A stretch of DNA of 64,000 nucleotides from Mycoplasma sp. Bg1 (GCA_001641205.1 LSMX01000003.1:120177-184176), one strand, 5' to 3'. Shown: positions 4,602-64,000, counted from the first letter of the stretch. Numbers and translations are program-made. Notes: generated by a model not told the origin, from the sequence alone.

Positions 4602-5768
4602 CTAAATATAATTGTACATTCTATTTATTTTTGTTGCTAGGAATAATAATTTGTGTTGTTTCTTCAAAAGATAATTATCACCTTTAAACATTTTTTCTTT
4701 ACCTTGTTTAATTATAATATTTTTATTGATTTGTTCCAATGCTCCAACAACAATTAAAGCATCATGTTGACAAAGACCAATAATTTTTGAACTGTAAATT
4801 GAAACTTGACTTGGAGCTGAAAGGGCAATTTGTGCATAACTTTCAAAGCCAACAAGACGACTAATTTCTCCAGAAAAAATTAAGGCAGGATTAAAGGCTG
4901 CATATCTATTTAAAAATCCTTTAATTTCTGCAAAAAAATCATTTACAATTTCAGTAATATAATTAGAAAGATCTTTTTTTCTAAAAGTATTTTGGTCACC
5001 TGTAGAATCTCTTTTAGTATAAATAATTTTATTATCAACTACTGCTTCAGGAGGAATAAAACCAAAAGACATAAATAAATTTCTTGCAGTTGTAGAACTA
5101 ATTTGCATTTTTCTTGCAATATTTTTATAAATAATATCCATCCCCCCCCTTAATTTAATAATTTCTAAATAAGTTCCATTTTTCATAATTGAAATAAGGG
5201 TATGTTTTGCTTCGATATCAACATCAAAAATAACTTTATCTTTTTGTTTTAAAACAAGAAGTGCATTTTTAATTGTTTCGATACTAGAAATAATTTTTGT
5301 AAATTTAAGATTATTTGCATAAAAAGCATCAATAATTTGTCTATAAAGATTTTTAGAAATAACTTCATAACAAAGAGCAAGTTTAATTCCTTTATTATCT
5401 CTACTTATAAATGTTGTTTTAAAATCAATTAGATGTAATAATTTTCCATTTTGAACTTGAATTTTAGCTTTAATTAAAGAAAGTTCTTTTGTTAAATCAA
5501 TTTGTGGAGAAAAATATAAAATTTCAGTTTTGCTAAAAGTTCCTTTTGTATTAATTATTAGAACAAAATTTTCAATTGTTTCAAAAGCAGTAACTTTTCT
5601 TAATTCAGTTTGCATTTTTCTAATTCAAGTAGAATCAAAAAGAATTTTACCTATTAATGGTTTAAAATAAAAATTGTTTCGATAAAGCAAACTAACCTTA
5701 CCATTATAAGAAGTTAAGGTTACAGCTGCTTTATTATCTTTTATTTCAATCAATAATGTTTTAATCAT
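4602..5768 (-). CDS. ftsA: cell division protein FtsA-like (divergent)
   Basis: Lies between rsmH and ftsZ. The 4602..5615 piece extends through an in-frame TGA to an ATG at 5768 (frame checked). The actin-fold-like segment GGMDIIYKNIARKMQISSTTARNLF resembles FtsA. Confidence 0.7.
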
Positions 5769-6657
5769 GAATCCTTTTAATAGTTCGTAGTTTTGCAGAA
5801 CGAGATGCTTTGTTTTCTAGCAGTTCTTTTGTAGAAGGGTAAACTGTTCTTAGAGTATGATATCTATGCTGATTACCCATTTCTGAAATAATAATATCTT
5901 CTTTATTTTTTCAAAAAATGTTTTTTACAATCTTATCTTCTAAAGAATGAAAGGAAATAACTACACAAATTCCTCCAACTTTTAATAAACTTAATGCATC
6001 AATTAGTGAAGTTTCTAAAACTTCTAATTCTTTATTTACTTCAATTCTAATTGCTTGAAAAATATTTTTTGAAGGGTGTTTCTTTTTACTATAGCCCTTT
6101 ACATCTTTGATAATTTCATTTAATTGAATATTTGTTTTTATTTTTTCTATTGCTCTTTTTTCAACAATTTTTTTTGCAAGTGTTCTTGCCTGTTTTTCAT
6201 CACCAAATTTTCAAAAAATATCTGCAAGCTCTTTTTCAGAATAAGTATTTATTACTTCATAAGCACTAAGAGATTGATTTTGGTCCATTCTCATATCTAA
6301 TGTTGCTTCACCATGATAGGTAAACCCCCGACTTTCTGTTGTTAACTGAAAATATGAAGTTCCTAAATCATAAATAATTCCATCTATTTTAGAAATATTA
6401 TTATTTTCTAATTGTCTTTTTAAATTTTTGAAGTTATCATTAATAAAAATAATATTAGAATAATTTTTTAATTCTTTTTTGGCAAAGGTTAATGCTTCTA
6501 AATCTTGATCAAAAGCAATTAATCTTCCACCTTCTAATTTTTCTGCAATTAATTTTGCATGTCCACCAAGTCCAAGAGTTGCATCAACATAAACTCCTTT
6601 AGGATTAATTTTTAATTTATCAATTGCTTCCTTGCTAAGAACCGAATAATGTTTCAT
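5761..6657 (-). CDS. rsmH: 16S rRNA (cytosine1402-N4)-methyltransferase RsmH
   Basis: N-terminus MKHYSVLSKEAID..VYVDATLGLGGHA (SAM-binding motif). The C-terminus ..NKASRSAKLRTIKRIHD is reached by reading through TGA. The TAA at 5761..5763 was hand-checked. Confidence 0.9.
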
Positions 6658-40958: not shown

Positions 40959-41918
40959 TTATTTTTTAATTGTAGAAACTGCTTTTAGGGTTACTTCTTT
41001 TAAAGTAGAAACAGATTCAATAAATTGTTTTTTTTCTTTTTCTGAAAGATCTAATTCAAAAGTACGAATAATTCCTTCTTTTCCAATTAAACAAGGAATT
41101 CCTGCATAAGTTCCTTCCATCCCATATTCTCCAGAAAGAAGTGCTCCCGTTGCAAAGACTCTTTTTTCATCTCTTAAAATTGCTCTTGCAATATCAGTAA
41201 GGTTCATTCCAATTCCATAATAGGTTGCTCTTTTACGATCAATAATTTCATAAGCTTTTTTTCAAACAGTTTCATGAACTTTTGCAAGTTTTTCCTCTGT
41301 AAGTCCATATTTATCATATAGTGTTGATAGTTTAACTCCATTTAAAGTTGCAACTGAAAATGTTGAAACTGATGAATCACCATGTTCTCCCATTACATAA
41401 ATTCCAAAATCTCTTGGTGCTGCGTCTTCGATTAATTTAGATAATTCTAATTTTAATCTTGATGTATCAAGTGCACATGATGCTGAAATAACTTTACTTG
41501 GTTCAAATCCTGTAACTTGTTGAAAAACTGTAGTCATCACATCAACAGGATTTGAAGCAACAATTGTCACTCCTTCAAACCCATTTGCTTTAACTTGATC
41601 AGCAATTGATTTCATAATTTTGACATTATCTTCAACCATTGCAAGTCTTGTTTCACCTGGTTTTTGAGGTCTCCCTGCAGTAATTACAAGTAAATCTGCA
41701 TCTTTTACAAGTTCATAACCACCATTTTCAACAATATAATCTGTTGCTGTAGTTCCTCTTCCATCTTCAAGATCAAGTTTTTGACCATAAGCAACTTCTT
41801 CATTAATATCGATAATTCCATAATATTTTGCTAAATTTTGATTTGTTGCTGCATATAAGAATGACATCCCGACAAATCCCGCACCAATAAGCACTACTTT
41901 GTTTGTTGTATTTTTCAT
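40959..41918 (-). CDS. ldh: L-lactate dehydrogenase (canonical specificity loop)
   Basis: VVLIGAGFVGMS (Rossmann fold), loop ITAGRPQKPGETR (Gln102/Arg109 equivalents), LDTSRL, GEHGDS. Two same-frame pieces joined by TGA. Confidence 0.88.
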
Positions 41919-42087
41919 TTTTTCTCCAATAATAATTATATTTCTATTATATTACTAAATAATTAAGGAAATTTAAATATTTTAGATGGTTTGTTTTTTA
42001 TAAAAAAATAAAACAATTAAATAAAATAAATTTAATTTTTTTCTAATATTATTTAAATAAATTATTTAAATAAAGTAAGGGAAAAAC

Positions 42088-42321
42088 ATGAAAACAGAAA
42101 CAGACATAAAAACATTTTATTATTTAGGATTAATCTTTTTATTTATAGGATTATCAATATTTTTTGGAGTATTAGCAGGTTACTGTCATGAAGGAATAAA
42201 ATCTGCAAAGGATAGTTCTTATTATACTGCAACATTAAATCAGCATTTAATTTACTATTCATTTATTCTTTTGATATTTTTGCAATTCTTTTTACAATAT
42301 ATTCATTTAATAATTTTTTAA
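42088..42321 (+). CDS. small 2-TM membrane protein (77 aa), member of the repeated TM-module family
   Basis: ..KTFYYLGLIFLFIGLSIFFGVLAGY...LIYYSFILLIFLQFFLQYIHLIIF. Same layout as the two modules inside 48771..49517. Confidence 0.5.
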   Translation: MKTETDIKTFYYLGLIFLFIGLSIFFGVLAGYCHEGIKSAKDSSYYTATLNQHLIYYSFILLIFLQFFLQYIHLIIF

Positions 42322-42542
42322 ATTGTTTAAACGAAAAGAAAAAATTAAAATATGAAACTAATTACAATCCTATTAATTTTAAAAATACTCAAAATTAATA
42401 AAATAATAGGATTAAATATACTGTTTTAAATTAAAACCCTCAAAACTTTAATTTTTTATTTTATAAATAGCCTCCAACAAGAAAGCACTTTATTTTTAGT
42501 ATAATTATATTATTATATTCACAAAATAAAGGAAAAATAACT

Positions 42543-42977
42543 ATGCCACGAAGAAGAAGGGGTAAACCCATTATGACAACTGCTGTAACTATGAGTGCAA
42601 TGTCAAATAGAAAAACAAATAAAATGCAACAACAGCAAATGCAACAACAACAAACTCAGCAAACTCAACAACAACAAAATTATGCTACAGCACAAGACCC
42701 AATGCAACCTGCAACTCCTGTTCAACCAGAAGTAGTTGCACCAATAAAAGAAGAAGAACAAGCAGATCAAATTAGAACTATTGCTTCTGCAATTTCACTT
42801 TATCGAAAAAAAGGTTTAAGTTTTGCAGAAATCTTTACCAAAGTTGAAGCTTATAATAAAGGTTTTAAAAGTGAAGAAGATTTTAAAAAAGGATATTTAG
42901 ACTTTGTAAATGAAGAAGCAATTACTAATCCTAAATGAGAATCTGTACTTGAATTTGAACTAGAGCACCAAGAATAA
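42543..42977 (+). CDS. Arg/Gln-rich protein with conserved C-terminal domain, paralog A (144 aa)
   Basis: MPRRRRGKPIMTTAVTMSAMSNRKTNKMQQQQMQQQQTQQ.. then IRTIASAISLYRKKGLSFAEIFTKVEAYNKGF..W(TGA)ESVLEFELEHQE. RBS aaaggaaaaa and a tataat box lie upstream. Confidence 0.7.
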
Positions 42978-43017
42978 AATTCTAATTTAAATTTATAAAT
43001 TTGTTTATTATTAAAAT

Positions 43018-43047
43018 AAAAAAATAGGAATTAATTCCTATTTTTTT
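43018..43047. terminator. terminator hairpin (aaaaataggaatt/aattcctattttt family), copy 1
   Basis: Palindrome centred at 43032/43033 and flanked by A-run and T-run, so it could act in both directions (Q-rich gene on plus, ldh-like 2 on minus). Confidence 0.6.
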
Positions 43048-43128
43048 ATTTTCTTTATGTAATTTAAAATTTCCACTTTACAAAAAGCATTAATTCTTAT
43101 ATTAAGACTAATCTTATCTTTTATAATT

Positions 43129-44097
43129 TTAATTCTCTTCCCTAATTATAGAAAATGCTTTTAAGTTTAATTCTTTTAAAATTGAAATAGATTTAATAAA
43201 TTTAGCTTTTTCTTTTTCTGAAAGATCTAATTCGAAAGTTCTAATAATTCCTTCTTTTCCAATTAAACATGGAATTGCTGCATAAGTTCCTGCAATTCCA
43301 TATTCCCCCGAAAGAAGTGCTCCCGTTGCAAAAACTCTTTTTTCATCTCTTAAAACTGAACAAGCAATATCAACTAAAACCATTCCAATTCCATAACTAG
43401 TTAATCCTTTACGATTAAAAATTTCATAAGCTTTTTTTCAAACAGTTTCATGAACTTTAGCAAGTTTTTCTTCTGTAAGTCCATATTCTTCATATAATGT
43501 TGATAACTTAACTCCTTTTAATGTTGCAGCTGAAAATGCTGCAACAGAAGAATCTCCGTGTTCTCCCATTATATAAACATCAAAATCTTTTGGGGCTGCA
43601 TTTTCAATAAGTTTTGAAAGTTCTATTTTAAGTCTTGAAGAATCAAGAACACATGAAGCTGAAATTACTTTATTTGGTTCAATTCCAGTAATATGTTGAT
43701 AAATTATTGAAGCAGCTTCAAGTGGAGCTGAGGCAATAATAGTTATTCCTTTAAATCCGCTTGCTTTAACTTGAACTGCAATTGATTTCATAATTTTTAC
43801 AGTTCCTTCTAATAAATCATGTCTTGTTCCACCTGGTTTTAATGGTCCTCCCCCAGCAGCAATAATAAGTAAATCTGCATCTTTTAGAAGTTCATATCCA
43901 CCATCTTCTACAATATAATCACTTTCAATAGATCCTCTTCCATCTTCAAGATCAAGTTTTTGGCCATGAGCAAATTCACTTTTTAAATCAATAATTCCAT
44001 AATATTTTGCTAAATTTTGGTTTATTGCTGCATATAAAAATGATGTTCCTACATATCCAGCACCAATAACTACTACTTTATTTGTTGTATTTTCCAT
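43129..44097 (-). CDS. LDH-family 2-hydroxyacid dehydrogenase, variant specificity loop (paralog 2)
   Basis: VVVIGAGYVGTS, LDSSRL, GEHGDS, but the loop reads IAAGGGPLKPGGTR. That is one extra residue, Leu in place of Gln102, and Gly in place of the Glu before Thr-Arg. Confidence 0.8.
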
Positions 44098-44228: not shown

Positions 44229-45197
44229 TTAATTCATTTCTTCAATTATAGAAAGTGCTTTTACTTTTAAATCTTTTAAAACCAAAACAGATTTAATAAA
44301 TTGAGTTTTTTCTTTTTCTGAAAGTTCTAATTCAAAAGTACGAATAATACCTTCTTTTCCAATTAAGCAAGGAATTCCAGCATAAGTTCCTGCAATTCCA
44401 TATTCTCCTGAAAGAAGTGCTCCCGTTGCAAACATTCTTTTTTCATCTCTTAAAATTGAACGTGAAATGTCAACTAAAGTCATAGCAATTCCATAACAAG
44501 TTAATCCTTTACGATTAAAAATTTCATAACCTTTTCTTCAAACAGCTTCATGAACTTTAGCAAGTTTTTCTTCTGTAAGTCCATACTCATCATATAATGT
44601 TGAAAGTTTAACTCCTTTTAATGTTGCAACTGAAAAAGCAGAAACTGATGAATCTCCATGTTCTCCCATTACATAAATTCCAAAATCTTTTGGAGCTACA
44701 TTTTCAATAAGTTTTGAAAGTTCTAATTTAAGTCTTGAAGAATCAAGTGCACATGAAGCTGAAATTACTTTATTTGGTTCAAATCCAGTAACATGTTGAT
44801 AAATTGTTGTTGCTATATCAACTGGATTTGAAGCAATAACAGTTACTCCTTTAAAATCATTTGCTTTAACAGAAACTGCAATTGATTTCATAATTTTTGC
44901 GGTATCTTCAAGTAAATCAAGTCTTGTTCCGCCTGGTTTTAATGGCCCACCACCAGCAGCAATTATAAGCAAATCTGCATCTTTTACAAGTTCATAACCA
45001 CCATCTTCTACGATATAATCAGTTCCAATAGATCCTCTTCCATCTTCAAGATCAAGTTTTTGGCCATGAGCCATTTCTCTATTTAAATCAATAATTCCAT
45101 AATTTTTTGCTAAATTTTGGTTTATTGCTGCATATAGAAATGAAGTTCCTACATATCCGGCCCCAATAACTACTACTTTATTTGTTGTATTTTCCAT
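44229..45197 (-). CDS. LDH-family 2-hydroxyacid dehydrogenase, variant specificity loop (paralog 3)
   Basis: Same variant loop IAAGGGPLKPGGTR. Very similar to paralog 2 along its whole length. Confidence 0.8.
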
Positions 45198-45453: not shown

Positions 45454-45879
45454 ATGCCAAGAAGAAGAAGGGGAAGACCTCTTATGACAACCGCTGTAAC
45501 AATGAGTGCATTATCAAATAGAAAAACAAATAAAATGCAACAACAACAAATGCAGCAAGATCAACAAACGCAACAACAAAACTATGCAACAGCACAACAA
45601 CCAATGCAACCTGTTGCGCCTATTCAACAAGAAGTAGTTGCGCCAATACAAAAAGAAGAACAAACAGATCAAATTAGAACTATTGCTTCTGCAATTTCCC
45701 TTTATCGAAAAAAAGGATTAAATTTTGCAGAAATCTTTACTAAAGTAGAAGCTTATAATAAAGGCTATAAAAATGAAGATGACTTTAAAAAAGGATATTT
45801 AGATTTTGTAAATGAAGAAGCAATTAGTAACGCTAAATGAGAATCTGTACTTGAATTTGAATTAGAAAACCAAGAATAA
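45454..45879 (+). CDS. Arg/Gln-rich protein with conserved C-terminal domain, paralog B (141 aa)
   Basis: MPRRRRGRPLMTTAVTMSALSNRKTNKMQQQQMQQDQQTQQQ.. ..IRTIASAISLYRKKGLNFAEIFTKVEAYNKGY..W(TGA)ESVLEFELENQE. Its upstream region is homologous to that of paralog A. Confidence 0.7.
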
Positions 45880-45908
45880 AGCTATAAGAAAGTATCATTA
45901 AAATGAAT

Positions 45909-45941
45909 AAAAAAAATAGGAATTAAATTCCTATTTTTTTT
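45909..45941. terminator. terminator hairpin (ataggaatt/aattcctat family), copy 2
   Basis: aaaaaaaataggaattaaattcctatttttttt. Confidence 0.6.
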
Positions 45942-45956
45942 ATTATTATCTAAATT

Positions 45957-46354
45957 CTAATATGTATGTGTTGCTTCTTTTCCTTCAAGAATATCAACAC
46001 CGTTTGAAGTTCCAATTCTACTTGCCCCAGCATTAATATATGCTTCAGCATCTTCGTAGGTTCTAACTCCACCTGCAGCTTTAATTTTTGTATCAGGATT
46101 AATATTATCTTTCATAATTTTTACTGCTTCTAAAGTAGCTACTGAACAATCAATTCCTGTAGAAGTTTTTACAAAATCTCATTTTGCATTACTTGCAATT
46201 CTTGATGCTTTTGCAATTTGATCATCGCTAAGAAGAGCAATTTCTAAAATAATTTTAATTGTTGTTCCTTCTGTTGCAGCTCTAATTGCTTTTAGCTCAT
46301 TTTCAACGTATTCTCAATCTCCTGATTTAATCATGGAAACATTAATTACATAAT
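45957..46354 (-). pseudogene. deoC 3' fragment (about 132 C-terminal codons), copy 1
   Basis: Near-identical (a handful of mismatches by eye) to 49854..50251 of the intact deoC, including the stop codon. Homology ends abruptly after ..aattacataat at 46354. No 5' part and no start codon. Confidence 0.85.
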
Positions 46355-46555
46355 TAAATCTATCTACTTCTTTTATAAAAGCACTTTTTTTACTATACAA
46401 ATTTTAGTATTATTATTTTTATTTCAAAAAAATTACAAAATAAAACTAAAAATACAAAAATGATGTTTGTAATTATTGTAATTTAGATGAAATTAATTAG
46501 ATTAATTGTTTTAATAGTTATTTTAATTTAAAAAAGAATCATTTTCTCAATAAAT

Positions 46556-47176
46556 TTAGTTATTTATAATATTAAATATTTTTCTTGCAAACTGAAAATA
46601 TTCTTCTGTAGGTATTATTTTTGTTATTGGAATATCATAATTACTATGTACAATTTTATTTCTTTCAGAAATTATTTTTTTTCAAAGTTCATTATCATTA
46701 TTGGTTAAATTTTCAAAATTATCAATAATTAAAGAATGATAAAAATGATTATTTTTATTTTTTGTATTTAACAAAATAGAAATATCTTTTTTAACATTAC
46801 AGTTATTTCAAGTTTTGTTATTTAAAAAATCACTAATAAGTTTTATAAATAATTTTTTATTAAAATCATCAATATCCTCTCTTAACAAAATTTTGCCAGT
46901 AATTCTACTTATTTTTTCTCTATTATTGATATTTTCATCACTTAAAGATCTTTCAAAAAAATATTCAGACATTTTTGAAATAATATTTTTATCTAAAAAT
47001 TTATAACTTTCATTTTGAATACTCATTAAAACAAAATTTTTTCATTTGGTTTCTATTTCAGATACAATAAAAATATAAAAATACTCCACAATTATTTTTT
47101 GTTTAGGTGTAGTTACATCAAAAGAACTATTTTTAAGTTTTTTTTCCAGATAATTTAAGATTTCTATGTTTTCCAT
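46556..47176 (-). CDS. HEPN-like protein (206 aa) with C-terminal R-x4-H motif
   Basis: ATG at 47176 lies 1 nt after the DUF262 stop. The C-terminus ..ELW(TGA)KKIISERNKIVHSNYDIP.. contains RNKIVH (Rx4H). Codons 46556..46700 were hand-translated. Confidence 0.5.
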
Positions 47177-47177
47177 T

Positions 47178-48407
47178 TTAAATAATTAAATAATCACTAA
47201 ATGCGGTAAAAATTTTAGTATATTTCAACATTAATTGATTATTATTTCCTGTTCCTATTTTCAAACTTAAAAAAAATTTTTTTTCTTTATCATTAATAAA
47301 AAGAGATTTATAAATTTCTTGAAATTGCTGTTTTGAAATTTTTTCAAAATCTAGATATTTAAATAAAATTAATGTTGCCTCTGCCAAAGAAATATTAATT
47401 TTATTATCAAAATTAAAAAAATTCTCATTTTTTGAATTAGAATAAATTCTAAATATTTTAATTCCATCAAAATATTCTTTTAATTTATACATTAGCTTAT
47501 TTAAATCATTAATAATTTGCTCATTTTTTTCAATAGAATTTTTTGATGCTAATTTCATATAATTGTTTATTAAATAAATAATTCTTCCATTATAATCCAA
47601 AATTTTAATAGAAATTTCATTAAAATTATTTCTACTAAGTCTTATTTTTTCATAAAAAGACAAATATCTAAAAATAAGTTCGGTGTTTTTCATTCTTTTA
47701 ACAAAAACAGAATTTAGTGTTAAGTTTTCAAAAACTTTTCACTCTAAATTATCATTAGTAAATTTTTTGATTTTAGAGTTTAAATCACTTCTATAAATTG
47801 CATTACGTAATTCTTGAGTATTTAATTTCATAGATCCTTGGTTTAATCTAGAAAAAATATCAAATTTTAAAGATTCATCAGATCCTTTTCTAATTCTTAT
47901 TGTTTGTAAAACTTGAGTTTTTAAATAATTTTGGACTCCTATATTTAATTCTTCAAATTTTTTGCCATTTAAATTTTCAAATGATTCTAAACCTCTTAAT
48001 TTTCATTCATTATGTAAAAATGTTTGAATGGTTGTTAATCTTTGGACACCATCTATAACGTCAAATTTTGAATTTGTAGTTTCAAATAAATAAACTGGAG
48101 GTATAGTAATATTAATTAAGAGTGATTCAATAAATTTTGCTCCATTTAATATTGATCAAACAAAATTTCTTTGAAATTCTGGACTAATATTTCAATCTTC
48201 ATCATCTAATCTTCTACAAATATCTTGCAATTCAATGTTGGTGGTATCTATTATTAATGATTTAGGTTTTCAACCTTTTTCTTGATTATTAGCTTCATCA
48301 CTATCAAATTCTTCTTCTTTTTCATCATAACCAGAGTTTTTTTCAAAATCATCATTTTCTTTAGTCAAAATTGGTGCAAACTCTAATTCCTTAATTTTAT
48401 TATTCAT
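47178..48407 (-). CDS. DUF262 (ParB/GmrSD N-terminal-like) domain protein, 409 aa
   Basis: ..NISPEFQRNFVW(TGA)SILNGAKFIESLLINITIPPVYLFE..FDVIDGVQRLTTIQTFL (QR..W and DGxQR motifs). Acidic N-terminal extension. No DUF1524/HNH-type C-terminal domain recognised. Confidence 0.7.
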
Positions 48408-48492
48408 AATATTCCTTTTTATAATTATATAATTTTAAATAAACTAATTTAAAATTACTTTATTATTTAAAATAAATTTTGCATTTTTATAA

Positions 48493-48518
48493 AAAAATAG
48501 GAATCTAGTTCCTATTTT
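48493..48518. terminator. terminator hairpin family, copy 3 (degenerate loop)
   Basis: aaaaataggaa tctag ttcctatttt. Confidence 0.45.
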
Positions 48519-48530
48519 AATATTTAAAAT

Positions 48531-48756
48531 CTAATATGTATGTGTTGCTTCTTTTCCTTCAAGAATATCAACACCGTTTGAAGTTCCAATTCTACTTGCC
48601 CCAGCATTAATATATGCTTCAGCATCTTCGTAGGTTCTAACTCCACCTGCAGCTTTAATTTTTGTATCAGGATTAATATTATCTTTCATAATTTTTACTG
48701 CTTCTAAAGTAGCTCCTGAACAATCAATTTTTGTAGAAGTTTTTACAAAATCTCAA
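48531..48756 (-). pseudogene. deoC 3' fragment (about 75 C-terminal codons), copy 2
   Basis: Near-identical to 49854..50079 of the intact deoC. Homology stops at ..acaaaatctca, and 15 nt further on comes the stop codon of the next gene. Confidence 0.85.
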
Positions 48757-48770
48757 TTTAAAATAATTGC

Positions 48771-49517
48771 CTATTCTTGATTTTCCAATTCAAATTCAAG
48801 TACAGATTCTCATTTTTGATTAGTAATTGCTTCTTTATTTACAAAATCTAAATATCTTTTTTTAAAGTCCTTTTCATTTTTAAAACCTTTATTATAAGCT
48901 TCAACTTTAGTAAAAATTTCTGCAAAATTTAATCCTTTTTTTCTATAAAGGGAAATTGTAGAAGCAATAGTTTTAATTTGATCTATTTGTTTTTCATATA
49001 TAGATGCATCTGTCTCTAATTGAATATGGGCAGTAGTTTGTACTAATTTTAATGGTGTTTCATTATTATATAAACAAAGTATGCTTTTTATTATTCAATA
49101 TATTGATAAAAAAATTGTAAAAATGTCTATAAAAATAAATGCAATATAGAGAGAGTTGATTCAACTTGAAATCCCTACAGAATTAAACATTAGATCATTA
49201 ATTTCTTTTGTATATATTCCAAATAAAATTGCTAAGCCAAAAAATAAGAAGAATAAACCAAAATATATAATTACTTTAAATTGGTTAATATTTATATTAT
49301 TTTTGTCTATTTCTAAACAAAATATAATTTTTATTATTCAATATATTGAAAATAAAATTGCAAAAATATCGAAAAAAACAAAACTAGTGCGCCGTGCTCC
49401 ATAATATCAATGAAAATGATGTGCAATTACCCCAAACACAATTGCTAATGCTAAAAATAAAAATAATAATCCAAAATATAATATTACTTTAAATATATTC
49501 TTCTGTTGCAAATTCAT
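48771..49517 (-). CDS. fusion protein: two tandem 2-TM modules + the conserved C-terminal domain of the Arg/Gln-rich family (248 aa)
   Basis: I translated codons 49517 down to 48972 one by one and read the remaining 3' codons down to the TAG at 48771 by eye; no TAA/TAG was seen. MNLQQKNIFKVILYFGLLFLFLALAIVFGV..FDIFAILFSIYW(TGA)IIKIIFCL / ..NQFKVIIYFGLFFLFFGLAILFGI..FIDIFTIFLSIYW(TGA)IIKSILCL, then ..DQIKTIASTISLYRKKGLNFAEIFTKVEAYNKGF..WESVLEFELENQE. Confidence 0.7.
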
Positions 49518-49803
49518 TATTTTCCCCCAACAATTTAATAGTCTTATAATTTTAATTATATATTTAATGATAAAATAATGATTTAAATATATATTTATCT
49601 CCTATTTTTAATATATAAAATTATGTAATATAATAGCAATCTTCATATAAACATTTATATTTTTAAATATTTTTATTCACAATTCCTTTTTGCAAAAAAA
49701 CTAAATAATCAAGTGATTTTTAATTTTAAATAAAAATTTATAATCAATTCTATACTAGAACATCAAGAATAAATTTATAAATAAATATCATCAAAAATAA
49801 ATT

Positions 49804-49832
49804 AAAAAATAGGAATTAACTTCCTATTTTTT
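49804..49832. terminator. terminator hairpin family, copy 4
   Basis: aaaaaataggaa ttaac ttcctatttttt, directly downstream of the intact deoC. Confidence 0.6.
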
Positions 49833-49853
49833 AATGTTTATTATTTATAAATT

Positions 49854-50516
49854 CTAATATGTGTGTGTTGCTTCTTTTCCTTCAAGAATATCAACACCGT
49901 TTGAAGTTCCAATTCTGCTTGCCCCAGCATTAATATATGCTTCAGCATCTTCGTAGGTTCTAACTCCACCTGCAGCTTTAATTTTTGTATCAGGATTAAT
50001 ATTATCTTTCATAATTTTTACTGCTTCTAAAGTGGCTCCTGAACAATCAATTCCTGTAGAGGTTTTTACAAAATCTCATTTTGCATTACTTGCAATTCTT
50101 GATGCTTTTGCAATTTGATCATCGCTAAGAAGAGCAATTTCTAAAATAATTTTAATTGTTGTTCCTTCTGTTGCAGCTCTAATTGCTTTTAGCTCATTTT
50201 CAACGTATTCTCAATCTCCTGATTTAATCATGGAAACATTAATTACATAATCAAGTTCATCAGCACCTCTTCTAATTGCATCTTGGCCTTCAAAAACTTT
50301 AGCTTCGGTAGTTTGAGTTCCATAAGGAAATCCAACTACAGCTGTAATTCCAATGTTATTTGCATGTAATCTTTCTTTTACATAGTCAATTCACATTGGG
50401 TGAATACATAATGTAATAAAATTTCATTTAATTGCATCTTCTACGTATTTATCTAAAATTTCTTTTGTTGAATCTCTTTTAATTAAAGTGTGATCAATAT
50501 ATCTATTTAATTCCAT
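49854..50516 (-). CDS. deoC: deoxyribose-phosphate aldolase
   Basis: MELNRYIDHTLIK.., CIHPMW(TGA).., VVGFPYG.., W(TGA)DFVKTSTG (Schiff-base Lys), AAGGVRT. 220 aa, with TAG at 49854. Confidence 0.9.
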
Positions 50517-50713: not shown

Positions 50714-52099
50714 TTAAAATTTTTGGAAATATTCTAAATCTATTCCGTTTAATTCTAATCGCTTATTAATATAATTCTTAGTTTCTGGTGTTAAAATTGT
50801 TGAAATTAGAGAATGTTCTAATTTTTCTGATTTAATTTGCTTAACAATTTCCCCATATTCATCCTTTTTAATTCAAATATTTCCCTCTTGATCAAAAACT
50901 AATATATTTTTATCAAATAATTTATGAATAGTTGGGCCTAGTAATAAACCATTTTCAGGATCATATTTTTCATCTTTATTACATTTTATAAAATCAACAA
51001 TATGAGAAGCTTCTATTGCATACGAATTTTTCATTCCTTTAATTAAATCATTTTTATTAATAAATTCTTGTTCATTAATTTCAATATATCTTTTAATATC
51101 ATTCAATAAAAGTTGACGATATTGTACTTGTCCTGGTCTACCATTATCATTTTTTATAAAAAATTCTAAAACTTTAGATTGAATTGTTAAAATTTCTACT
51201 TTTCAATCATTTAAATATTTTTCAAATAAAAAATCATTTAATTTATTAAAGATAGTCATTGCTAAATTTAAATCATTTTTAATTAAATTTTTAATTGTTG
51301 TTTGAGTTCCGAAATGTTTTCCAATAGAAGATTTTCCACTTTTATGTGTTTTAAATAATTCTGGAAGAGGAATTTTTTGGTTTTTTTGTTTTCTTAAAAT
51401 TACTACAATATCTAAGCAAACTGGAAAATTGCTATTACATAATTCATATAAAAAGAGTGCATGTAATGAAAAGAAAATATCTCTAATTGAATAACCCTTA
51501 ATATATTTTAGATTAAAATAATTTTTATAATTATTAACAAAATTAGATGCTAAATCAATCTTATCAATAATATAATCATCAATTATTTTTGATTTAAAAA
51601 TTAGATTAAAATAATTACTTGGAGCAAAATCTTTTTGAATTTCCAAATAACCCAAGCTTGCCATAACCTCTATAAATTGTCTTAGAGTTGATTTTGCAAT
51701 TAACTTTTTAAAATTTCTTCTATCATTAAAATAATCTTCTATTTTAAAAATTCACTCTCCCTCTTTTCCAATATAAAGAGCACTAGTTAAATAAGTTAAT
51801 TTTTGATCAACTCTTTTATAAATATTTAGATAATACCGTTTTTCTTTTTTAGTCTTTTTTTGTACTTTTAAAATTGATTCTTTTCATTCAAGAAAAATTT
51901 CTTCTTTTTCTAAATCAAGATTATAAGTTTTTAATAAATAGATAAACAAATTATTTATCCGACATAAATGAGTAAAAAAATCAGTTCCCATTGTTCAAAC
52001 AAATCCTCATTGATCTTTTTTAGTAATATCATCATTCATTTCAACTTGTTTTTGATAGATTGCTTTAATTTTAGTAATTTGATCTTTTGAAAATTCCAT
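50714..52099 (-). CDS. putative type II restriction endonuclease with C-terminal HNH (HNH_2-like) nuclease motif, 461 aa
   Basis: ATG at 52099 lies 1 nt after the methylase stop and is preceded by ggagga. C-terminal ..EASHIVDFIKCNKDEKYDPENGLLLGPTIHKLFDKNILVFD. Pieces 51203 and 50873 share one frame. Confidence 0.65.
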
Positions 52100-52100
52100 C

Positions 52101-53398
52101 TTATTCCTCCAAAGTAGACATATAGTAAAATATCATTTCGATGATATTTACTGCAATTGAATTTCCTGCCTGTTTATAAAGCTTTTCTCTTGCTTGATTA
52201 TCTGTCTTAGCTCGGTATTTTTTAGTAACAAGAAGCATCTCTTTTTTAGCACTTTGATACTGCTTTTCACTAAAACCCATAAGAAGATATGCTTCTCTTG
52301 GGGTAATAAATCTTCAATTAGTATAATCAACTCCATTATTATCAAATCTTTTATTATTAAAAGCAACTGATCCACAATTTGGTAATCTATCCTGTTTTGT
52401 TGTTACTGTTGGAATATGTTTTAAATTAATATCAATGCAAGGAGAAGAATCAATCATTCTTATTCTTGAAGGAGTATTTTTAATTTGTGCTCAAAGCGAT
52501 TCTTCAAAATCTTTATTAGAAAAATCTATTAATTTCTTAATAGGTTTTTTATTTTTTGGTTGATAAATTTTACAAGTATAGATTTTTTTTAAAATAATTT
52601 CAAGATCATCTCTTGTTCCTTTTCAAGAAACTATTTCATTATTAGGATCATAAATAGAAAAAGCATAAACACGGCGTCTTTTTTGGACCATTCCAAAATC
52701 ACTTGAATAGAGCATTCCCCAAATTGTTTTATAACCTAAAAGCTCTAATTGCTCCATCCAAGCATCAAAGTCTGCTCGATGTTGTTTTTGAACTAAATTA
52801 GGAACATTTTCAAGTAGGAGGAATTTTGGTAATAAATTTGGGCGTCTCTCTCTCTCTCTCTCTCTCTCTCTTCTTGAATTGCTTTAAGATTTATTAAAAC
52901 CTTTTCAATTTCAAGAAGTAACCCTGATCTGGTATGGGCTTTTATTCCCTCATTAAAGCCGTGAAAATTACCTGCAGTAGATAAATCAGTACAAGGAAAA
53001 GAATAAGTAAGCAAGTCTACTCCATTGTTATCTTCAATTATTTTTTTTATTCTAGTAGTTGAATCTACTATAGTTCCAATGTTACTAGCAACTTTGAAAG
53101 CTTTATATCAATCAAGTTTTACTTCTTTTTTAATTGTAGAAGTATTTAAAAAAGGTTTTGATCCATCAAGACTAAAAGTATTTTTTTTAATTCAATTATC
53201 AAGTTCATCATCAGTTGGAGTTTTAATCTTACTTCGATAATTTTTATAATGAATTGCAGCATAGGACTGAGCAGCAAAAACATCCCAATCGGATGTTCCT
53301 ATAATTTCATAATCAAGAATGCCTTTACTCTTTAAGTTTTTTAGGGCAGTATTTTGTGCTCCAATTCCACTAAAAGTTTCAATAACTTTAAATTTCAT
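52101..53398 (-). pseudogene. DNA (cytosine-5)-methyltransferase, out of frame at an internal (GA)13 tract (candidate phase-variable gene)
   Basis: 5' frame: MKFKVIETFSGIGAQ (motif I), SFPCTDLS (motif IV). After the repeat, the motifs continue in another frame: RPNLLPKFLLLENVPNLV (VI), QKRRRVY (VIII), ITPREAYLLMGF, GNSIAV (X). Total length is 1298 nt, which is not a multiple of 3. Confidence 0.85.
52845..52870 (-). repeat. (GA)13 dinucleotide tract inside the methyltransferase ORF
   Basis: Thirteen tc units on the plus strand, counted directly. 12 or 15 units would restore a single 431/433-aa frame. Confidence 0.95.
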
Positions 53399-53528
53399 AT
53401 AAAAAAATTATATACAGAGGCAAAACTAAAACTGCTGTGAAAAAAATAATATAATGATTTAATAATATAGAAATTCAATTTTTAGAAATATTGATAATAA
53501 ACCTTTTACCACATAAATTGTGTTTATC

Positions 53529-54782: not shown

Positions 54783-54821
54783 AATTTTACTATTCATTAT
54801 GTTTTTTATTAATTGGAGTTT

Positions 54822-54995
54822 TAATCTTACATCAATTATTATAATAAATCACAACATTAAGTTGAGCAACAAAAACATTCTACTTAAAATATTTTTATAA
54901 TTTTGAAATAAAAAAATACCTTTATTCTTTAAGTTTTTTAAAGCAGTATTTTGTGCTCTAATTCTGCTAAAAATTTCAAGAACTTTAAATTTCAT
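54822..54995 (-). pseudogene. decayed copy of the methyltransferase 5' end
   Basis: MKFKVLEIFSRIRAQNTALKNLKNKG.. versus MKFKVIETFSGIGAQNTALKNLKSKG of the full gene. Internal deletions, with motif I destroyed. Homologous to about 53214..53398. Confidence 0.8.
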
Positions 54996-55193
54996 ATAAA
55001 AAATTATATGTAAAAGTAAAGATAAAACTATTGTATATAATGATTTAATAATATAGAAATTCAATATTTAAAAACATGATAATAAATCTTTTACCACATA
55101 AATTGTGTTTATCTTTTTTTTTTTTTTTGTTATTACATTATTATAAATTTATAGATAAATAGCAAATTTTAAGAAAGGAATAAGTAAATAAAT
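54996..55193. repeat. duplicate of the 53399..53608 divergent intergenic/promoter region
   Basis: Same sequence blocks (..taatatagaaattcaat.., ..ttaccacataaattgtgtttatc-Tn-gttatt.., aagaaaggaataagtaaataaatATG). Confidence 0.85.
55113..55128 (+). promoter_or_regulatory. T16 homopolymer upstream of surface-protein gene 2
   Basis: 16 consecutive T, counted. Same position as the T15 tract in the paralogous promoter. Confidence 0.5.
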
Positions 55194-59600: not shown

Positions 59601-60156
59601 AATGAGCAATGGAACTTCAACTAATATTATTGAGGTTGATCCATTTCTAGCACATCCAAGTACACCAGTTAATAAGCCAACTGCAATTAATATTGATGAA
59701 CCAAATGGAATTTTACAAGTTGAAGGAAATATTACATTAAATGAAGCAACTGCAAAATCAATAGATGTTAATATTATTAATGAAAAAGGCGACATTGTAA
59801 CAACAGGTTGTGAAATTATTGATAATGGTGATAGTATTTCTTATAGTGTCTTTACTGATCAATATAATGGAAATATAGATAATTATAGATTACAAATTAC
59901 TTATGAAATTGATGGTAAAAAACAAGAACCACTTGAAAATGAATATATAGATATTCAAGAACCAAAAAACATAACAAATGAAGATGCAGATTTATCTAAT
60001 TTAATAGACAATGATGATGGCGATGATAATAATGGTGAGACTGGTAATACAAGTAGTAGTAAACTTGGATTAATAATAGGTATTGTGGCAGTAATCACAA
60101 TTTTATTTTCTGCAGTAATGGGATTTTTCTTATTTATAAAACTTAAAACTAAATAA
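56671..60156 (+). CDS. giant surface protein family member 3 (1161 aa) with tandem beta-rich repeats and C-terminal TM anchor
   Basis: MKKQYLISLLGLFAIFAPLGNG.., DSDGSKDVSTRD, repeats, then acidic DNDDGDDNNGE and the anchor LGLIIGIVAVITILFSAVMGFFLFIKLKTK. All pieces (57658, 58090, 58582, 58996, 59494) share the frame of ATG 56671. RBS aaagggaaaa. Confidence 0.75.
57352..59790 (+). repeat. about 7.5 tandem coding repeats of 300-318 bp (about 102 aa) in surface gene 3
   Basis: Unit boundaries fall at in-frame TGA(Trp) codons 57352, 57655, 57955, 58273, 58579, 58879, 59185 and 59491. Consensus: W-x-[DN]-G..LA...G.L....L.PN..Y.NT.I.A.MSDG..T....F.....PS.I...G.V.VTSSTEANVNYTVTPGKDVDG.D.TV.KV. Confidence 0.85.
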
Positions 60157-60170
60157 ATATTAATAATATT

Positions 60171-60200
60171 AAAAAAAGTAGAAATATTTCTACTTTTTTT
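60171..60200 (+). terminator. rho-independent terminator after surface gene 3
   Basis: aaaaagtagaaat atttctactttttttt, paralogous to the hairpin at 54753..54782. Confidence 0.6.
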
Positions 60201-60201
60201 T

Positions 60202-60355
60202 ATTCAACTTTAAAGAATATTGTTAGTTGGAGTTTTAAGCTTATTTCAATAATTATTATAATAAATTGTAATACAGGGTTGAGTAGCAAAAACATCCTAG
60301 TTGGATATTCAATAATTTCGCAATCAAGAACGGCTTTGTTTTTTAAGTTTTTTAG
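60202..60355 (-). pseudogene. second decayed fragment of the methyltransferase 5' region
   Basis: ..agttggagttttaagcttatttcaataatt..gagtagcaaaaacatcctagttgga..caatcaagaacggctttgttttttaagttttttag aligns with 53190..53345. No start codon. Confidence 0.7.
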
Positions 60356-60459: not shown

Positions 60460-61218
60460 TTAATTAAAAATTTCAAAATAATTAATTTCATTATTTTTTA
60501 TTCTATAAAAAATCTCTTTTTCATTTTGTGAAATTGTTGGCAAAAATAAATGATAAGCATCAATAATAATTATGTTAAAAGTTTTATCATATATATCATT
60601 TGAATTAAAATTAATATCATTTGTTTCATCTAAATAATTAAGTTCATTAGTCATTAATATAATTCTCATTGAAGAAAAAATATCATAAATATTATTTTTA
60701 GTTAAATTATATTTTTTATATAAATATGAAAAATCTTGATTAAAAATTTTATAATTAAATCCTATTTTATATATATTATTTCTAAAACATTCTTCATCAG
60801 AAGTCTTATTTTTATTTTTATAATTTTTAAAATGGTTTTGTTCTAATATTTGAAGTGCTCTATAGGAGTTTCTGGAATGACAATTATATTTTTCTATTTT
60901 TCCTTTATATAAATGTTCTTCAAATAACAAATTATTTTTATATAAAAAAATAATTAAATTTTTGCAATTAATTAATAAATTAAAATATTCAATAGTCAAA
61001 AAATTAGAAAAATAATGTTTTTCTAATATAATAGATTTTAAATTATAATCATTTTCTAAAGTTAATTTATAACCAGATTCTTTTAAACTTTTTTTTAAAT
61101 GTAAACTATCTTCTTTTTCATAATGAAAATTTTCATCTTCATTAGTAAAATCCTTTTCATCTAAAGAAAAAGAAAATTTTTCTAATATATCTTCTATTGA
61201 ATCTACATCATTTTTCAT
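60460..61218 (-). CDS. hypothetical Asn/Tyr/Lys-rich protein (252 aa), candidate partner (toxin?) of the upstream Panacea-domain gene
   Basis: Intact ORF without TGA. It starts 14 nt downstream of the stop of 61233..61805. No domain recognised. Confidence 0.5.
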   Translation of the reverse strand: MKNDVDSIEDILEKFSFSLDEKDFTNEDENFHYEKEDSLHLKKSLKESGYKLTLENDYNLKSIILEKHYFSNFLTIEYFNLLINCKNLIIFLYKNNLLFEEHLYKGKIEKYNCHSRNSYRALQILEQNHFKNYKNKNKTSDEECFRNNIYKIGFNYKIFNQDFSYLYKKYNLTKNNIYDIFSSMRIILMTNELNYLDETNDINFNSNDIYDKTFNIIIIDAYHLFLPTISQNEKEIFYRIKNNEINYFEIFN

Positions 61219-61232
61219 TAAATTATTTAATT

Positions 61233-61805
61233 TTATTCATTATATTGCTTATATATTAAATATGAATCCATTTCTGAGCCAGGACCTATATCATCAACTG
61301 CATTTTTTCATGAAATATCAGAATGAGATTTATTAACAAGAATAAAATCTTCGATAAGAAAAATATTTTTTAATTGCAAGTTTATAAATATTTTTATTCT
61401 TTCTATTTGATTGATATTTAAATTTAATTTATCATTAAATTTAAGATCTATTTTATAAGATTTTCTAGAAAAATTTCTATTTTTCTGGTTTTCATAAATC
61501 TCTTCATCAACTGGTCCATATTTTCAAGCAAAAAAAGTAATATCAAATAATTCAATAATATTTTTTTTAGAATTATTTGATATTACTTCCTTTGAAATTT
61601 TTGCTTCTTCTCCATTTAATAATATTTGTTGATATTTAAATCACAAAGCATACAAAAAATATAATGATTTTTGTAATTTAATTTTTGAAATAGAATTATT
61701 ATTTATTTCATCTAATTTATTATTCGTTGATTCTTTATATAAATTAATAATATATTCAGCAATTTCAACATTAGAATTTAACAATATTTTTTTACTATTT
61801 TCCAT
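61233..61805 (-). CDS. Panacea/DUF4065 (SocA/GepA-like) domain protein, putative antitoxin (190 aa)
   Basis: Not in the track because of TGA. ..ISKIKLQKSLYFLYALW(TGA)FKY.. and ..FDITFFAW(TGA)KYGPVDEEIY.. match the KLQKLLYF / F.AW.yGPV...vY hallmarks of DUF4065. Confidence 0.6.
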
Positions 61806-62221
61806 TTTTTATTCCAAAATATAAAAGTATATATAAATATTTAACATCTTCTATATTATTTTAATACATAAATATAATATCACATTTGTAAACATTTATA
61901 GATTTTTGCAAACAATTTAAGTTAATATTTCAAATTTTTTTGTTAATAATGAATAAGAAAGCAAATATTCATTATTCCTAAAAATAAAAATCTATTTCCA
62001 TCATCTTTCATAAAATTTCTATTTTTTTTATCATTTACTACTTGATCAATAAATTCTTTTTTAGTATTTTGCATTGAAGATATTCCTTTATTTAAATTTA
62101 ACAAGTCATTATTATATCCATTTTTTTCAAGATTATTTAAATAAATTACATTAAGATTTTTAATTTTATTTGTCTATACCAATTACTTGTTAAATCTTAC
62201 CCTGTCAAACATAAATGAAAA

Positions 62222-64000
62222 TTAATATTTATCTCCTCAATATTTTTTAACTATTTGTGATATTTCAGTTGATCTTTTGAGAATATTATCAATATTAAAA
62301 TCTATAACATCTAATTTAGTTAAAACTCCATTTATTCCATCAAGAGTTAATGATTTAGCTTCATTATTTATAGTATTACAATATTCTCTAATATTATCTT
62401 TATATAGTAAACTTCTTTTAGAATTTTTAGCAACAAAATAATTTCCAATCATATCTATATATTCAGGATATTCTGATTTTATTTCATCATATGAAATTTC
62501 ATCTGTTTCATTATTTAATTGATTAATAATTTCTTCTGTATAATTTGGCGGCAATAATTGAAAAGCATTTAATAAACTATTATTATTGCTAAAATTGTTT
62601 TCAATTGTAGACAATATTGTTTTACACATATTGCTACTATCTATTGGCCGTTTTGCAATAAAATTAATAAATGTATTTTCAGGAATCATTTGAAATTGTA
62701 AATCTATATCATTTACAAGAAAATTTCATAAATCTTTTGGAATTTTGATTTCATTAGTATTAATTGCTTTTATAACTTTATATACATATTTTCCAAGTGA
62801 AGCTAATCTATCTCCAGAAATACTTCTTCTAATATAATGAATTTCCATAATTTTAAGCATTTCACTAAAATCATTATCATTATTAATTTTTAATAATTTT
62901 GAATCAAATTGATCAAAAGTTCCATTGATTAAAATTAAGTTAGAGATAATTGGCAAAATAATTGAATTTGACATAATTATTTTAGCATCATTATAAAATG
63001 GTTTTAAAACATCAATTTTTTCAAAATTATGAATATTACTTGCAAGAATAAATACTTCTAAATATTTTCCTAAATTACTAATAAAATTTTCAAAATTTTC
63101 AAATGAAGTAATTTTATTATTTACATCTACATAATTTTTTACAAAATAATGTTTAAATCTTTTATAAATTGTTAAATCATTTCTTCATTCATATATATTA
63201 TTAGAAACATTTAAATAAAATACAAAAAAATCATCTTGAGCACGTTCAATAGTAGATTTTGTATAATAATTTTCAAATTTAACTTGAATATGATTTTCAA
63301 ATAAATTAATTATTTTCAAATCATTTTCTCTATAAAGATTTTCATCAATAGAGCTTAATAAAAAATTTTTAATTTTGTCATAATTTGTTAACTGTTTAGA
63401 TTTTGAATTTAAATTTTCAAAAATTTCAAATTCATTAATATCCTTTTCAAACCATATAATACCCACTTCAAGTTTTGATAAGGCACAAAGTAAATTGATA
63501 ATATAATCAGAAGCATCAGCGTTTTCATTTATTTTTGAGAAAATGTAATTTTTCATATAATTATAATTTTGATAAACTGAACTTTCCTTATATTGTCTAT
63601 TTGTATATATAGAATCATTTAGTAGAACTTTTTCATCACCTAATAAATAATATTTCAAAAGATTTTGTGTTCTTTCATTATTAATTCTATTTTTCAAAAA
63701 ATTAATTAACAAAGAATTTTCAGTATTAAATAATTCATTTAATAGTTTACTAGATGTAATTTTGTTTTTAAGACAAACATCATAAATTGCTCTTAACAAT
63801 AAAAGAATTGTTGTTATTCTTTGTTGACCGTCCATAATGGAAAAAGAATTTTCTTTTTCTGAATTTCTTCCAAAACTTAGAACTCCGAAAAAATATGAAA
63901 AAATTGTTTTTTCATTATTTATAATTCCTTCTAAATCAAAAAGTAATTCTTCAATATTGGATCTTGATCAATCATAATTTCTTTGATATGGTGGTACAAA
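62222..64000 (-). CDS. large DUF262-family protein, 5' end beyond the window (at least 592 aa)
   Basis: ..VPPYQRNYDW(TGA)SRSNIEELLFDL.. and SIMDGQQRITTILLL (DGQQR). Pieces 63185, 62726 and 62237 share one frame. I translated the 62975..63184 gap codon by codon and it is open. TAA at 62222. Confidence 0.7.

Follow-up and report, generated by a model that had tools for sequence, protein, structure and literature searches.

In Escherichia coli, e14 and phage 21 integrate in the 3' end of icd. The insert supplies a substitute 3' end that leaves the target gene intact, the displaced end persists as a partial direct repeat, and the intact and displaced copies differ mainly at synonymous sites. Here we describe a locus that resembles this arrangement in a 64,000-nucleotide stretch of Mycoplasma sp. 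Bg1 (GCA_001641205.1, LSMX01000003.1:120177-184176; hereafter the window). An intact deoC gene is accompanied by two truncated copies and one decayed relic of its 3' end, so that both an intact target gene and partial direct repeats on the far side of inserts are present. The machinery appears to differ. Insertion of e14 and phage 21 depends on a tyrosine integrase and one fixed core, whereas at the deoC locus no recombinase gene was found, breakpoints differ from copy to copy, and the inserts are 1-2 kb of local or defence-like genes.

Other described processes bear comparison with this locus. Host recombination acting on one stretch of homology suffices for insertion of foreign DNA, and a circular donor duplicates the homologous segment on either side. 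Campbell-type insertion-duplication and homology-facilitated illegitimate recombination are known from naturally transformable bacteria; we know of no demonstration of the Campbell process in Hepatoplasmataceae, nor of a circular intermediate or a donor strain. The deoC locus is similar in that the same chromosomal segment is directly repeated on either side of an insert (a 498-bp repeat at 45863-46354 and 49756-50251, and a nested one at 48491-48781), but the crossovers implied by sequence variants lie unusually near the edges of homology. Tandem duplication by unequal crossing-over would account for three lactate/malate dehydrogenase genes (ldh1, ldh2, and ldh3), two Arg/Gln-rich genes (RQ1 and RQ2), two terminator-like hairpins (hp1 and hp2), and the deoC relic at the ldh2 stop codon, as well as for a nearby array of methylase 5' ends and lipoprotein genes; alone, it cannot put an unrelated DUF262/HEPN cassette between two deoC fragments. 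Defence-system hotspots, finally, sit between conserved core genes. The slot between deoC and ldh is likewise variable, lies beside a probable type II restriction-modification pair, and holds a DUF262-type gene in one genome and other genes in relatives. It departs from such hotspots in that most of its extra DNA consists of duplicated local genes, with one small defence-like cassette.

From these comparisons and the evidence below, we give roughly an even chance to the reading that the locus is a recombination-prone variable region and that the deoC copies are scars of integrase-independent segmental duplication and insertion-duplication. The phenomenon is of a known kind and involves no new mobile element or molecular system; on this reading, the locus is a clear case of plasticity without an integrase in a minimal genome.

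The window has a GC content of about 26% and uses genetic code 4; open reading frames (ORFs) of at least 100 amino acids fill 91% of it under table 4 versus 46% under table 11. The organism is probably a Hepatoplasmataceae symbiont of an isopod, a Mollicute with a tiny, reduced genome. Within the species-level genome collection it has one close relative, Mycoplasma sp. Bg2, which lives in symbiosis with Bathynomus, an isopod of the deep sea; the published average nucleotide identity between Bg1 and Bg2 is 84.2% (PMC10928387). DeoC of Bg2 is 89% identical to that of the window at the protein level, and the locus is 81-86% identical at the nucleotide level.

Repeats were detected by self-BLAST of the window and by alignment of the three deoC ends. 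We refer to the 398-nt fragment as f1, to the 226-nt fragment as f2, to the decayed relic as f0, and to the hairpins as hp1 to hp4. The deoC copies and their flanks are as follows:

49854..50516, minus strand: intact deoC, 220 aa, matching Pfam DeoC (1.5e-18) over residues 6-210 and equal in length to its homologues.
45957..46354, minus strand: f1, a 398-nt 3' fragment of deoC (self-BLAST, alignment) with ancestral synonymous states and a private G160V change.
48531..48756, minus strand: f2, a 226-nt 3' fragment of deoC, ancestral at the synonymous sites, with GGA changed to AAA in this copy only (G155K in the KTSTG motif).
43086..43130, minus strand: f0, a decayed deoC relic (82% over 45 nt) abutting the ldh2 stop codon.
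43012..43050, unstranded: hp1, located 3' of RQ1, from pattern search and folding.
45880..45956, unstranded: hp2 with its spacers, a convergent terminator common to RQ2 and f1.
48491..48530, unstranded: hp3 with its spacer; homology to the other copies stops at the hairpin A-run and the DUF262 upstream region follows.
49755..49853, unstranded: 3' flank of intact deoC, comprising an RQ-end relic, hp4 (core 49809-49827), and a spacer.

Read in the direction of deoC, the locus begins with deoC, hp4, the RQ relic, a spacer (X), a gene encoding a transmembrane (TM) fusion protein, f2, and hp3. The DUF262 gene, a HEPN-like gene, a second spacer (j1), f1, hp2, and the convergent RQ2 follow, and the order continues with ldh3, ldh2, f0, hp1, the convergent RQ1, TM77, ldh1, a gene for a 1082-aa protein, and hisS.

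The self-BLAST revealed three pairwise repeats: 45863-46354 and 49756-50251 are 95% identical over 498 bp, 45910-46206 and 48491-48781 are 92.6% identical, and 48516-48781 and 49837-50103 are 94% identical. An earlier reading of the sequence, made without database searches (the sequence-only reading), had reported intact deoC together with 3' fragments at 45957..46354 and 48531..48756; self-BLAST and alignment confirm both, and the direct repeats, including the nested one, are what the self-comparison suggested by that reading shows. It had also stated that the copies start at the deoC stop codon. The fragment coordinates hold, but the repeats do not end there, since they continue through the hairpin; the repeat of f1 runs past it into the last 17 nt of RQ2. 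The coding parts of the copies are 97-100% identical, compared with 68-80% for the non-coding part past the stop codon. Against deoC, f1 shows 5 differences, all of them within the last 226 nt, with nt 227-398 identical; f2 shows 7.

The relic f0 lies between hp1, the fourth hairpin, and the ldh2 stop codon. It matches deoC 49974-50018 with a bit score of 46.4, compared with a maximum of 37.4 in 20 random windows, and in a second test its z score was 7.6, with none of 500 shuffles scoring as well. The breakpoints within deoC are unequal, at 398, 226, and about 165-177 nt for f1, f2, and f0, respectively. Each is joined to the 3' flank of a gene on the same strand: the HEPN-like gene (200 nt beyond), the TM-fusion gene (14 nt beyond), and ldh2 (0 nt beyond). 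An inverted deoC-like stretch at 49617-49655, which once gave a z score of 4.7, was rejected; its bit score of 35.6 fell below the random-window maximum of 37.4.

Differences between the copies are distributed in an informative manner. Four third-codon positions (49863, 49917, 50034, and 50061), all synonymous, carry T in both f1 and f2 and C in intact deoC, and Bg2 deoC has T at 2 of these four sites. Intact deoC thus shows 4 changes among about 51 synonymous sites in its last 226 nt and none in nt 227-398, whereas the fragments show 4 private differences from deoC among 452 sites, with the boundary base of f2 accounting for one of these differences. The rates in the intact copy and in the fragments are unequal by Fisher's exact test (p = 0.006). 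These unequal rates, together with the 80% identity between the flank of intact deoC and that of f1, argue that the last 226 nt and the flank of intact deoC are of separate origin. Fragments f1 and f2 look like displaced older 3' ends that are now decaying, judging from their alleles and private non-synonymous changes. Between stop codon and hairpin, f1 and Bg2 deoC have the same spacer sequence, for which reason we read f1 as probably the older native 3' end of deoC. The sequence-only reading had proposed successive insertions at the deoC 3' end; the allele pattern and flank divergence support the displaced 3' ends in that proposal, but not islands inserted by an integrase.

The hairpins that follow the copies share one pattern. 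ATAGGAA-N3-7-TTCCTAT has exactly four matches in the 64 kb, at 43024-43041, 45916-45934, 48497-48515, and 49809-49827, against a chance expectation of 0.01; none of 100 shuffles contained four. The terminator hairpin previously noted beyond each copy, with a fourth near 43018, is therefore borne out. All four have A-runs and T-runs on either side and folding energies of -9.8 to -16.7 kcal/mol, and they resemble intrinsic terminators that work in both directions. Folding was used in place of a consensus terminator scan, which missed these hairpins because it demands three G-C pairs. An integron-like cassette array, which would have an IntI integrase, an attI site, and attC hairpins where cassettes end, was considered and rejected; the hairpins are perfect palindromes of A-runs and T-runs, as is usual for bidirectional terminators, and no integrase was identified in the window (Pfam for part of it, by eye for the rest). 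Flank identities among modules M0, M1, and M3 are 73-81%. The 18-nt relic CTAGAACATCAAGAATAA at 49755-49772 (plus strand) matches the ends of RQ1 and RQ2 at 15 of 18 positions each, the Bg2 RQ end at 17 of 18, and the Bg2 TM-fusion end at all 18, in agreement with its original identification as the end of an RQ-type gene.

Comparison of the interval between deoC and ldh in four genomes places these structures in context:

This window: about 9 kb, with two deoC fragments and one relic.
Bg2: its own terminator, a TM-fusion gene, a hairpin, RQ (convergent), and two TM genes, followed by one ldh; no deoC fragments.
GLR43: DcuC, CBAH, and a nicotinamide mononucleotide (NMN) transporter; no deoC fragments.
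Tyloplasma litorale: one AP-endonuclease gene; no deoC fragments.

The order deoC ... ldh, large protein, hisS is kept in 4 of 4 genomes and the interval differs in each, which establishes the deoC-ldh interval as a true variable spot and upholds the earlier description of a hotspot downstream of deoC. The truncated deoC copies are specific to this genome among the four; a search of Bg2, GLR43, and Tyloplasma for the same three copies, which would have pointed to an ancient array, found no deoC fragments. Bg2 has one deoC, one ldh, and one RQ gene. Its TM-fusion gene is the direct downstream neighbour of deoC, and the TM-fusion gene is therefore a resident of the locus rather than an island; its earlier description as an inserted segment does not stand. 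A search of the Bg2 spacer that separates the TM-fusion gene from its hairpin gave no deoC relic. In Bg2, the spacer from the TM-fusion gene to the RQ terminator (contig L001, 4509-4622) includes a degraded duplicate of sequence from the 5' region of the adjacent TM genes, with 74-76% identity to 5662-5761 and 6058-6174; the Bg2 locus thus also bears small duplication scars.

The segments that lie between or beyond the deoC copies are:

40959..42977: ldh1-TM77-RQ1 unit, orthologous to Bg2 (ldh1 40959-41918, minus strand; TM77 42088-42321, plus strand; RQ1 42543-42977, plus strand).
43129-44097 and 44229-45197, minus strand: ldh2 and ldh3, paralogues of ldh1.
45454..45879, plus strand: RQ2, an orphan Arg/Gln-rich gene with an AT-hook-like N-terminus.
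46355..46555, unstranded: spacer j1, between the HEPN-like gene and f1, 13% GC.
46556..47176, minus strand: HEPN-like 206-aa partner with an Rx4H motif (RNKIVH); Pfam RiboL-PSP HEPN E value 0.0046, under the curated cutoff.
47178..48407, minus strand: DUF262 (ParB-like) NsnA-type protein, 409 aa; Pfam GmrSD_N 4e-23, PADLOC NsnA 1.5e-65.
48771..49517, minus strand: TM-fusion gene, 248 aa, with two TM modules and an RQ-type C-terminal domain; orthologous to the gene that follows deoC in Bg2.
49518..49754, unstranded: spacer X, from the TM-fusion start codon to the RQ relic.

Between f0 and f1, the ldh/RQ2 cargo is made up of local gene paralogues with 82-89% nucleotide identity. RQ2 and RQ1 are 84.8% identical over a 561-bp alignment that covers the gene and the hairpin. 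The product of ldh1 is the orthologue of the single Bg2 ldh (89% protein identity), while ldh2 and ldh3 form a diverged tandem pair with 74-77% protein identity to ldh1 that branches outside the pair of ldh1 and Bg2 ldh in 297 of 300 bootstrap samples; ldh2/ldh3 represent either an old duplication or an acquisition from a related lineage. Because ldh2-ldh3-RQ2 is paralogous local DNA, the oldest insert is best regarded as a segmental duplication. The order fits a tandem duplication, with ldh1/TM/RQ1/hp1/f0 followed by ldh2-3/RQ2/hp2/deoC end and f0 abutting the ldh2 stop codon as the expected junction. The DUF262/HEPN layer shows no such order of paralogous units.

RQ proteins start with MPRRRRG(K/R)P, which is AT-hook-like, and continue with a Gln-rich stretch; their C-terminal domain also occurs in the TM-fusion protein. 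Only four representatives were found among 1.84 billion proteins, which marks RQ as a lineage-specific orphan family, and the same search gave no hint of a mobile element. The TM-fusion stop codon lies 14 nt from f2. Within spacer X, a portion around 49546-49612 is weakly colinear with the Bg2 intergenic region between deoC and the TM-fusion gene (z 3.4; 2 of 300 shuffles as good) and takes in half of the Bg2 deoC terminator; the remainder is unmatched. Spacer X was also considered as a decayed RQ gene, a candidate rejected for want of similarity to RQ1 or RQ2. Spacer j1 has no match above chance in the window or in Bg2.

The DUF262/HEPN pair, missing from the Bg2 locus, is alone among the inserts in looking like acquired defence-type cargo. 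The DUF262 protein covers positions 17-381 of the 385 in the PADLOC NsnA model, and its best homologue among 5.8 billion proteins is 36% identical. The partner of that closest homologue also has an Rx4H motif (RHPIVH), beyond which it shares no significant pairwise similarity with the 206-aa protein; neither the 206-aa protein nor the partner proteins of the closest homologue have a PADLOC match. The Menshen antiphage system is NsnABC, with an NsnB ABC-ATPase and an NsnC effector encoded alongside NsnA (PMC12065111). The 409-aa protein fits NsnA, which pairs a ParB-DUF262 domain with a DNA-binding domain at the C-terminus, nearly end to end, but its sole partner is the 206-aa Rx4H protein; the cassette is not a Menshen system, because NsnB and NsnC are both missing from it. 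Total GC of the cassette is 17-20%, compared with about 31% for deoC and the ldh genes, while its third-position GC is 9-10%, as in local genes. Since the third-position value matches that of the neighbours, composition is no proof of recent foreign origin. Searches for terminal inverted repeats or target-site duplications around the cassette gave only weak AT-rich matches.

A search for an integrase or transposase found none by Pfam among proteins encoded at 40.6-53.4 kb and 60.4-64 kb, and none was apparent by eye among the other ORFs of the window, which look like housekeeping or lipoprotein genes. The earlier statement that no integrase is visible therefore stands for the window, by profile in part and by eye in part. 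Accretion of islands by an unseen integrase does not follow from it, as breakpoints differ and the cargo is largely local.

We propose that general recombination is the most likely cause of the deoC-end copies. In a first step, about as old as the split between Bg1 and Bg2, a tandem duplication of the unit ldh, RQ, hairpin, and deoC 3' end would have given rise to ldh2/3, to RQ2 and another hairpin, and, joined to the ldh2 stop codon, to f0. In two younger steps, two segments would have entered, each with a deoC 3' end and terminator at one end. These segments were probably alternative versions of the same locus from related strains that integrated Campbell-style through deoC homology; one may have carried the NsnA-like DUF262 and HEPN-like cassette, and the other may have brought or repositioned the resident TM-fusion gene. 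Each event would make deoC whole again, now with a different 3' end and terminator, and would leave the earlier ends behind as f1 and then f2. Homologous or short-homology recombination by the general host machinery would be sufficient. Campbell integration predicts a chimera, with donor sequence 3' of the crossover in the proximal copy and native sequence in the distal one. At this locus the intact copy has a diverged last 226 nt and flank and the fragments share ancestral states, but the crossovers implied fall improbably near the ends of homology.

Several observations weigh against this proposal. The non-coding flanks are 19-32% diverged compared with 0-3% for the coding parts. A single recent event does not predict this gap, which requires diverged donors, fast-evolving hairpin regions, or gene conversion. 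For the last Campbell event, the crossover would have to sit inside the opening ~18 nt of a 226-nt homology, an a priori unlikely position. At synonymous sites f1 and f2 agree completely, and yet their hairpins, hp3 being that of f2 and hp2 that of f1, are ~30% different. Microhomology at the junction of the TM-fusion gene and f2, assessed against the Bg2 TM-fusion flank, is not significant (z 0.9). The recombinase negative rests on inspection by eye for most ORFs at 1-36 kb and for the lipoprotein genes at 53.6-60.2 kb. Only one contig in the protein database carries this deoC, a look-up of the exact DeoC protein found nothing, and the window probably derives from a short-read metagenome-assembled genome (PMC10928387).

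The divergence of the flanks suggests a rival reading, an old, largely static array, in which the modules duplicated long ago and gene conversion has kept the coding parts of f1 and f2 near deoC. Gene conversion in such an array is a serious alternative, though we consider it fairly unlikely. The flank identities among M0, M1, and M3 are similar to those of RQ1/RQ2 (85%) and the ldh paralogues (82-89%), and the state of f0 (about 80%) shows how far a copy decays when it escapes conversion. Yet f0 was itself left unhomogenised, and conversion tracts would need to end at the stop codon in each copy. Four synonymous differences, moreover, fall in the functional copy and not in the neutral fragments, and an insertion event is still required for the DUF262/HEPN cassette.

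The whole deoC case depends on an unverified metagenomic assembly, and so does the order in which the copies lie. Genomes of the genus-level group of Bg1 and Bg2 are all short-read drafts (PMC10928387), the repeats are 226-498 bp long, and the three segments resemble alternative versions of one locus; co-existing strain variants of the region downstream of deoC could have been threaded, in succession, through the common deoC-end/hairpin repeat. We regard such an artefact as a serious alternative too, though an unlikely one. Reads must contain the unique sequences at the TM-fusion/f2, j1/f1, and f0/ldh2 junctions, from which we infer that the truncated deoC copies exist whether or not their order is right. 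Every copy carries variants of its own, and the longest stretch common to all three, judged by eye from the alignment, looks shorter than ~120 nt; if this holds, large k-mers could separate the copies. The radical private changes G155K and G160V point to decaying fragments rather than to alleles of full-length genes.

A further possibility extends general recombination at deoC and is, in our judgment, improbable: the deoC-end/terminator module may act as a portable homology arm, such that any segment between two copies can loop out as a circle through host recombination and re-insert near deoC in another strain. If true, the module would provide an integrase-free landing pad for defence or accessory cassettes that keeps deoC intact.

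Classical integrative islands at the deoC 3' end, bringing replacement 3' ends in the manner of e14 and phage 21 in icd and losing their integrases afterwards, would explain the imported 3' end on the intact gene, the displaced native ends distal to each insert, and a defence-like DUF262/HEPN cargo without a close relative, but they are improbable given inserts of only 1.3-2.1 kb, one of which holds a gene native to the Bg2 locus and another local paralogues, the lack of an integrase, transposase, or remnant (Pfam on proteins of the plastic zone, the rest of the window by eye), the lack of an inverted-repeat or target-site signature bounding the cassette, and deoC breakpoints that differ, which argues against one element type even though different elements could carry unequal lengths of homology.

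Other features lie near the locus. A 461-aa protein with a C-terminal HNH_2 domain is encoded at 50714-52099 (minus strand), between deoC and a C5 cytosine methylase gene; it is kept in Bg2 and is probably the endonuclease of a type II restriction-modification pair. The methylase gene (52101-53398, minus strand) is broken into two ORFs (52101-52757 and 52793-53398) not far from a coding (GA)n tract near 52845-52865, and from this arrangement it could be phase-variable or frameshifted. The Bg2 contig ends inside the same gene. The methylase 5' end with its upstream region is present three times (53150-53400, 54813-55000, and 60130-60355) around tandem lipoprotein genes. Copies 2 and 3 each start where the terminator hairpin of a lipoprotein gene (AAAAAAAGTAGAAATATTTCTACTTTTTTT) ends; the junction falls within a T-run that the methylase coding sequence also has. 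This array mirrors the deoC pattern and thus indicates that partial-gene duplication at terminators recurs in the 40-60 kb zone; self-BLAST found no such repeats in the first 36 kb of the window. A second defence-like island at 60460-64000 (GC 17.7%) encodes a GmrSD_N/DUF262 protein (3.9e-26) that runs past the window end, a 190-aa protein with a weak SocA/Panacea match, and a 252-aa orphan.

The scars that we attribute to general recombination at deoC resemble integrase att sites, which counsels caution in predicting islands from partial gene duplications. If the structure is real, a reduced Mollicute without identified mobile-element machinery gains and reshuffles genes at one locus, among them lactate dehydrogenase copies, an orphan gene family, and a DUF262-type defence cassette, and the deoC locus merits a look in population data of isopod symbionts.

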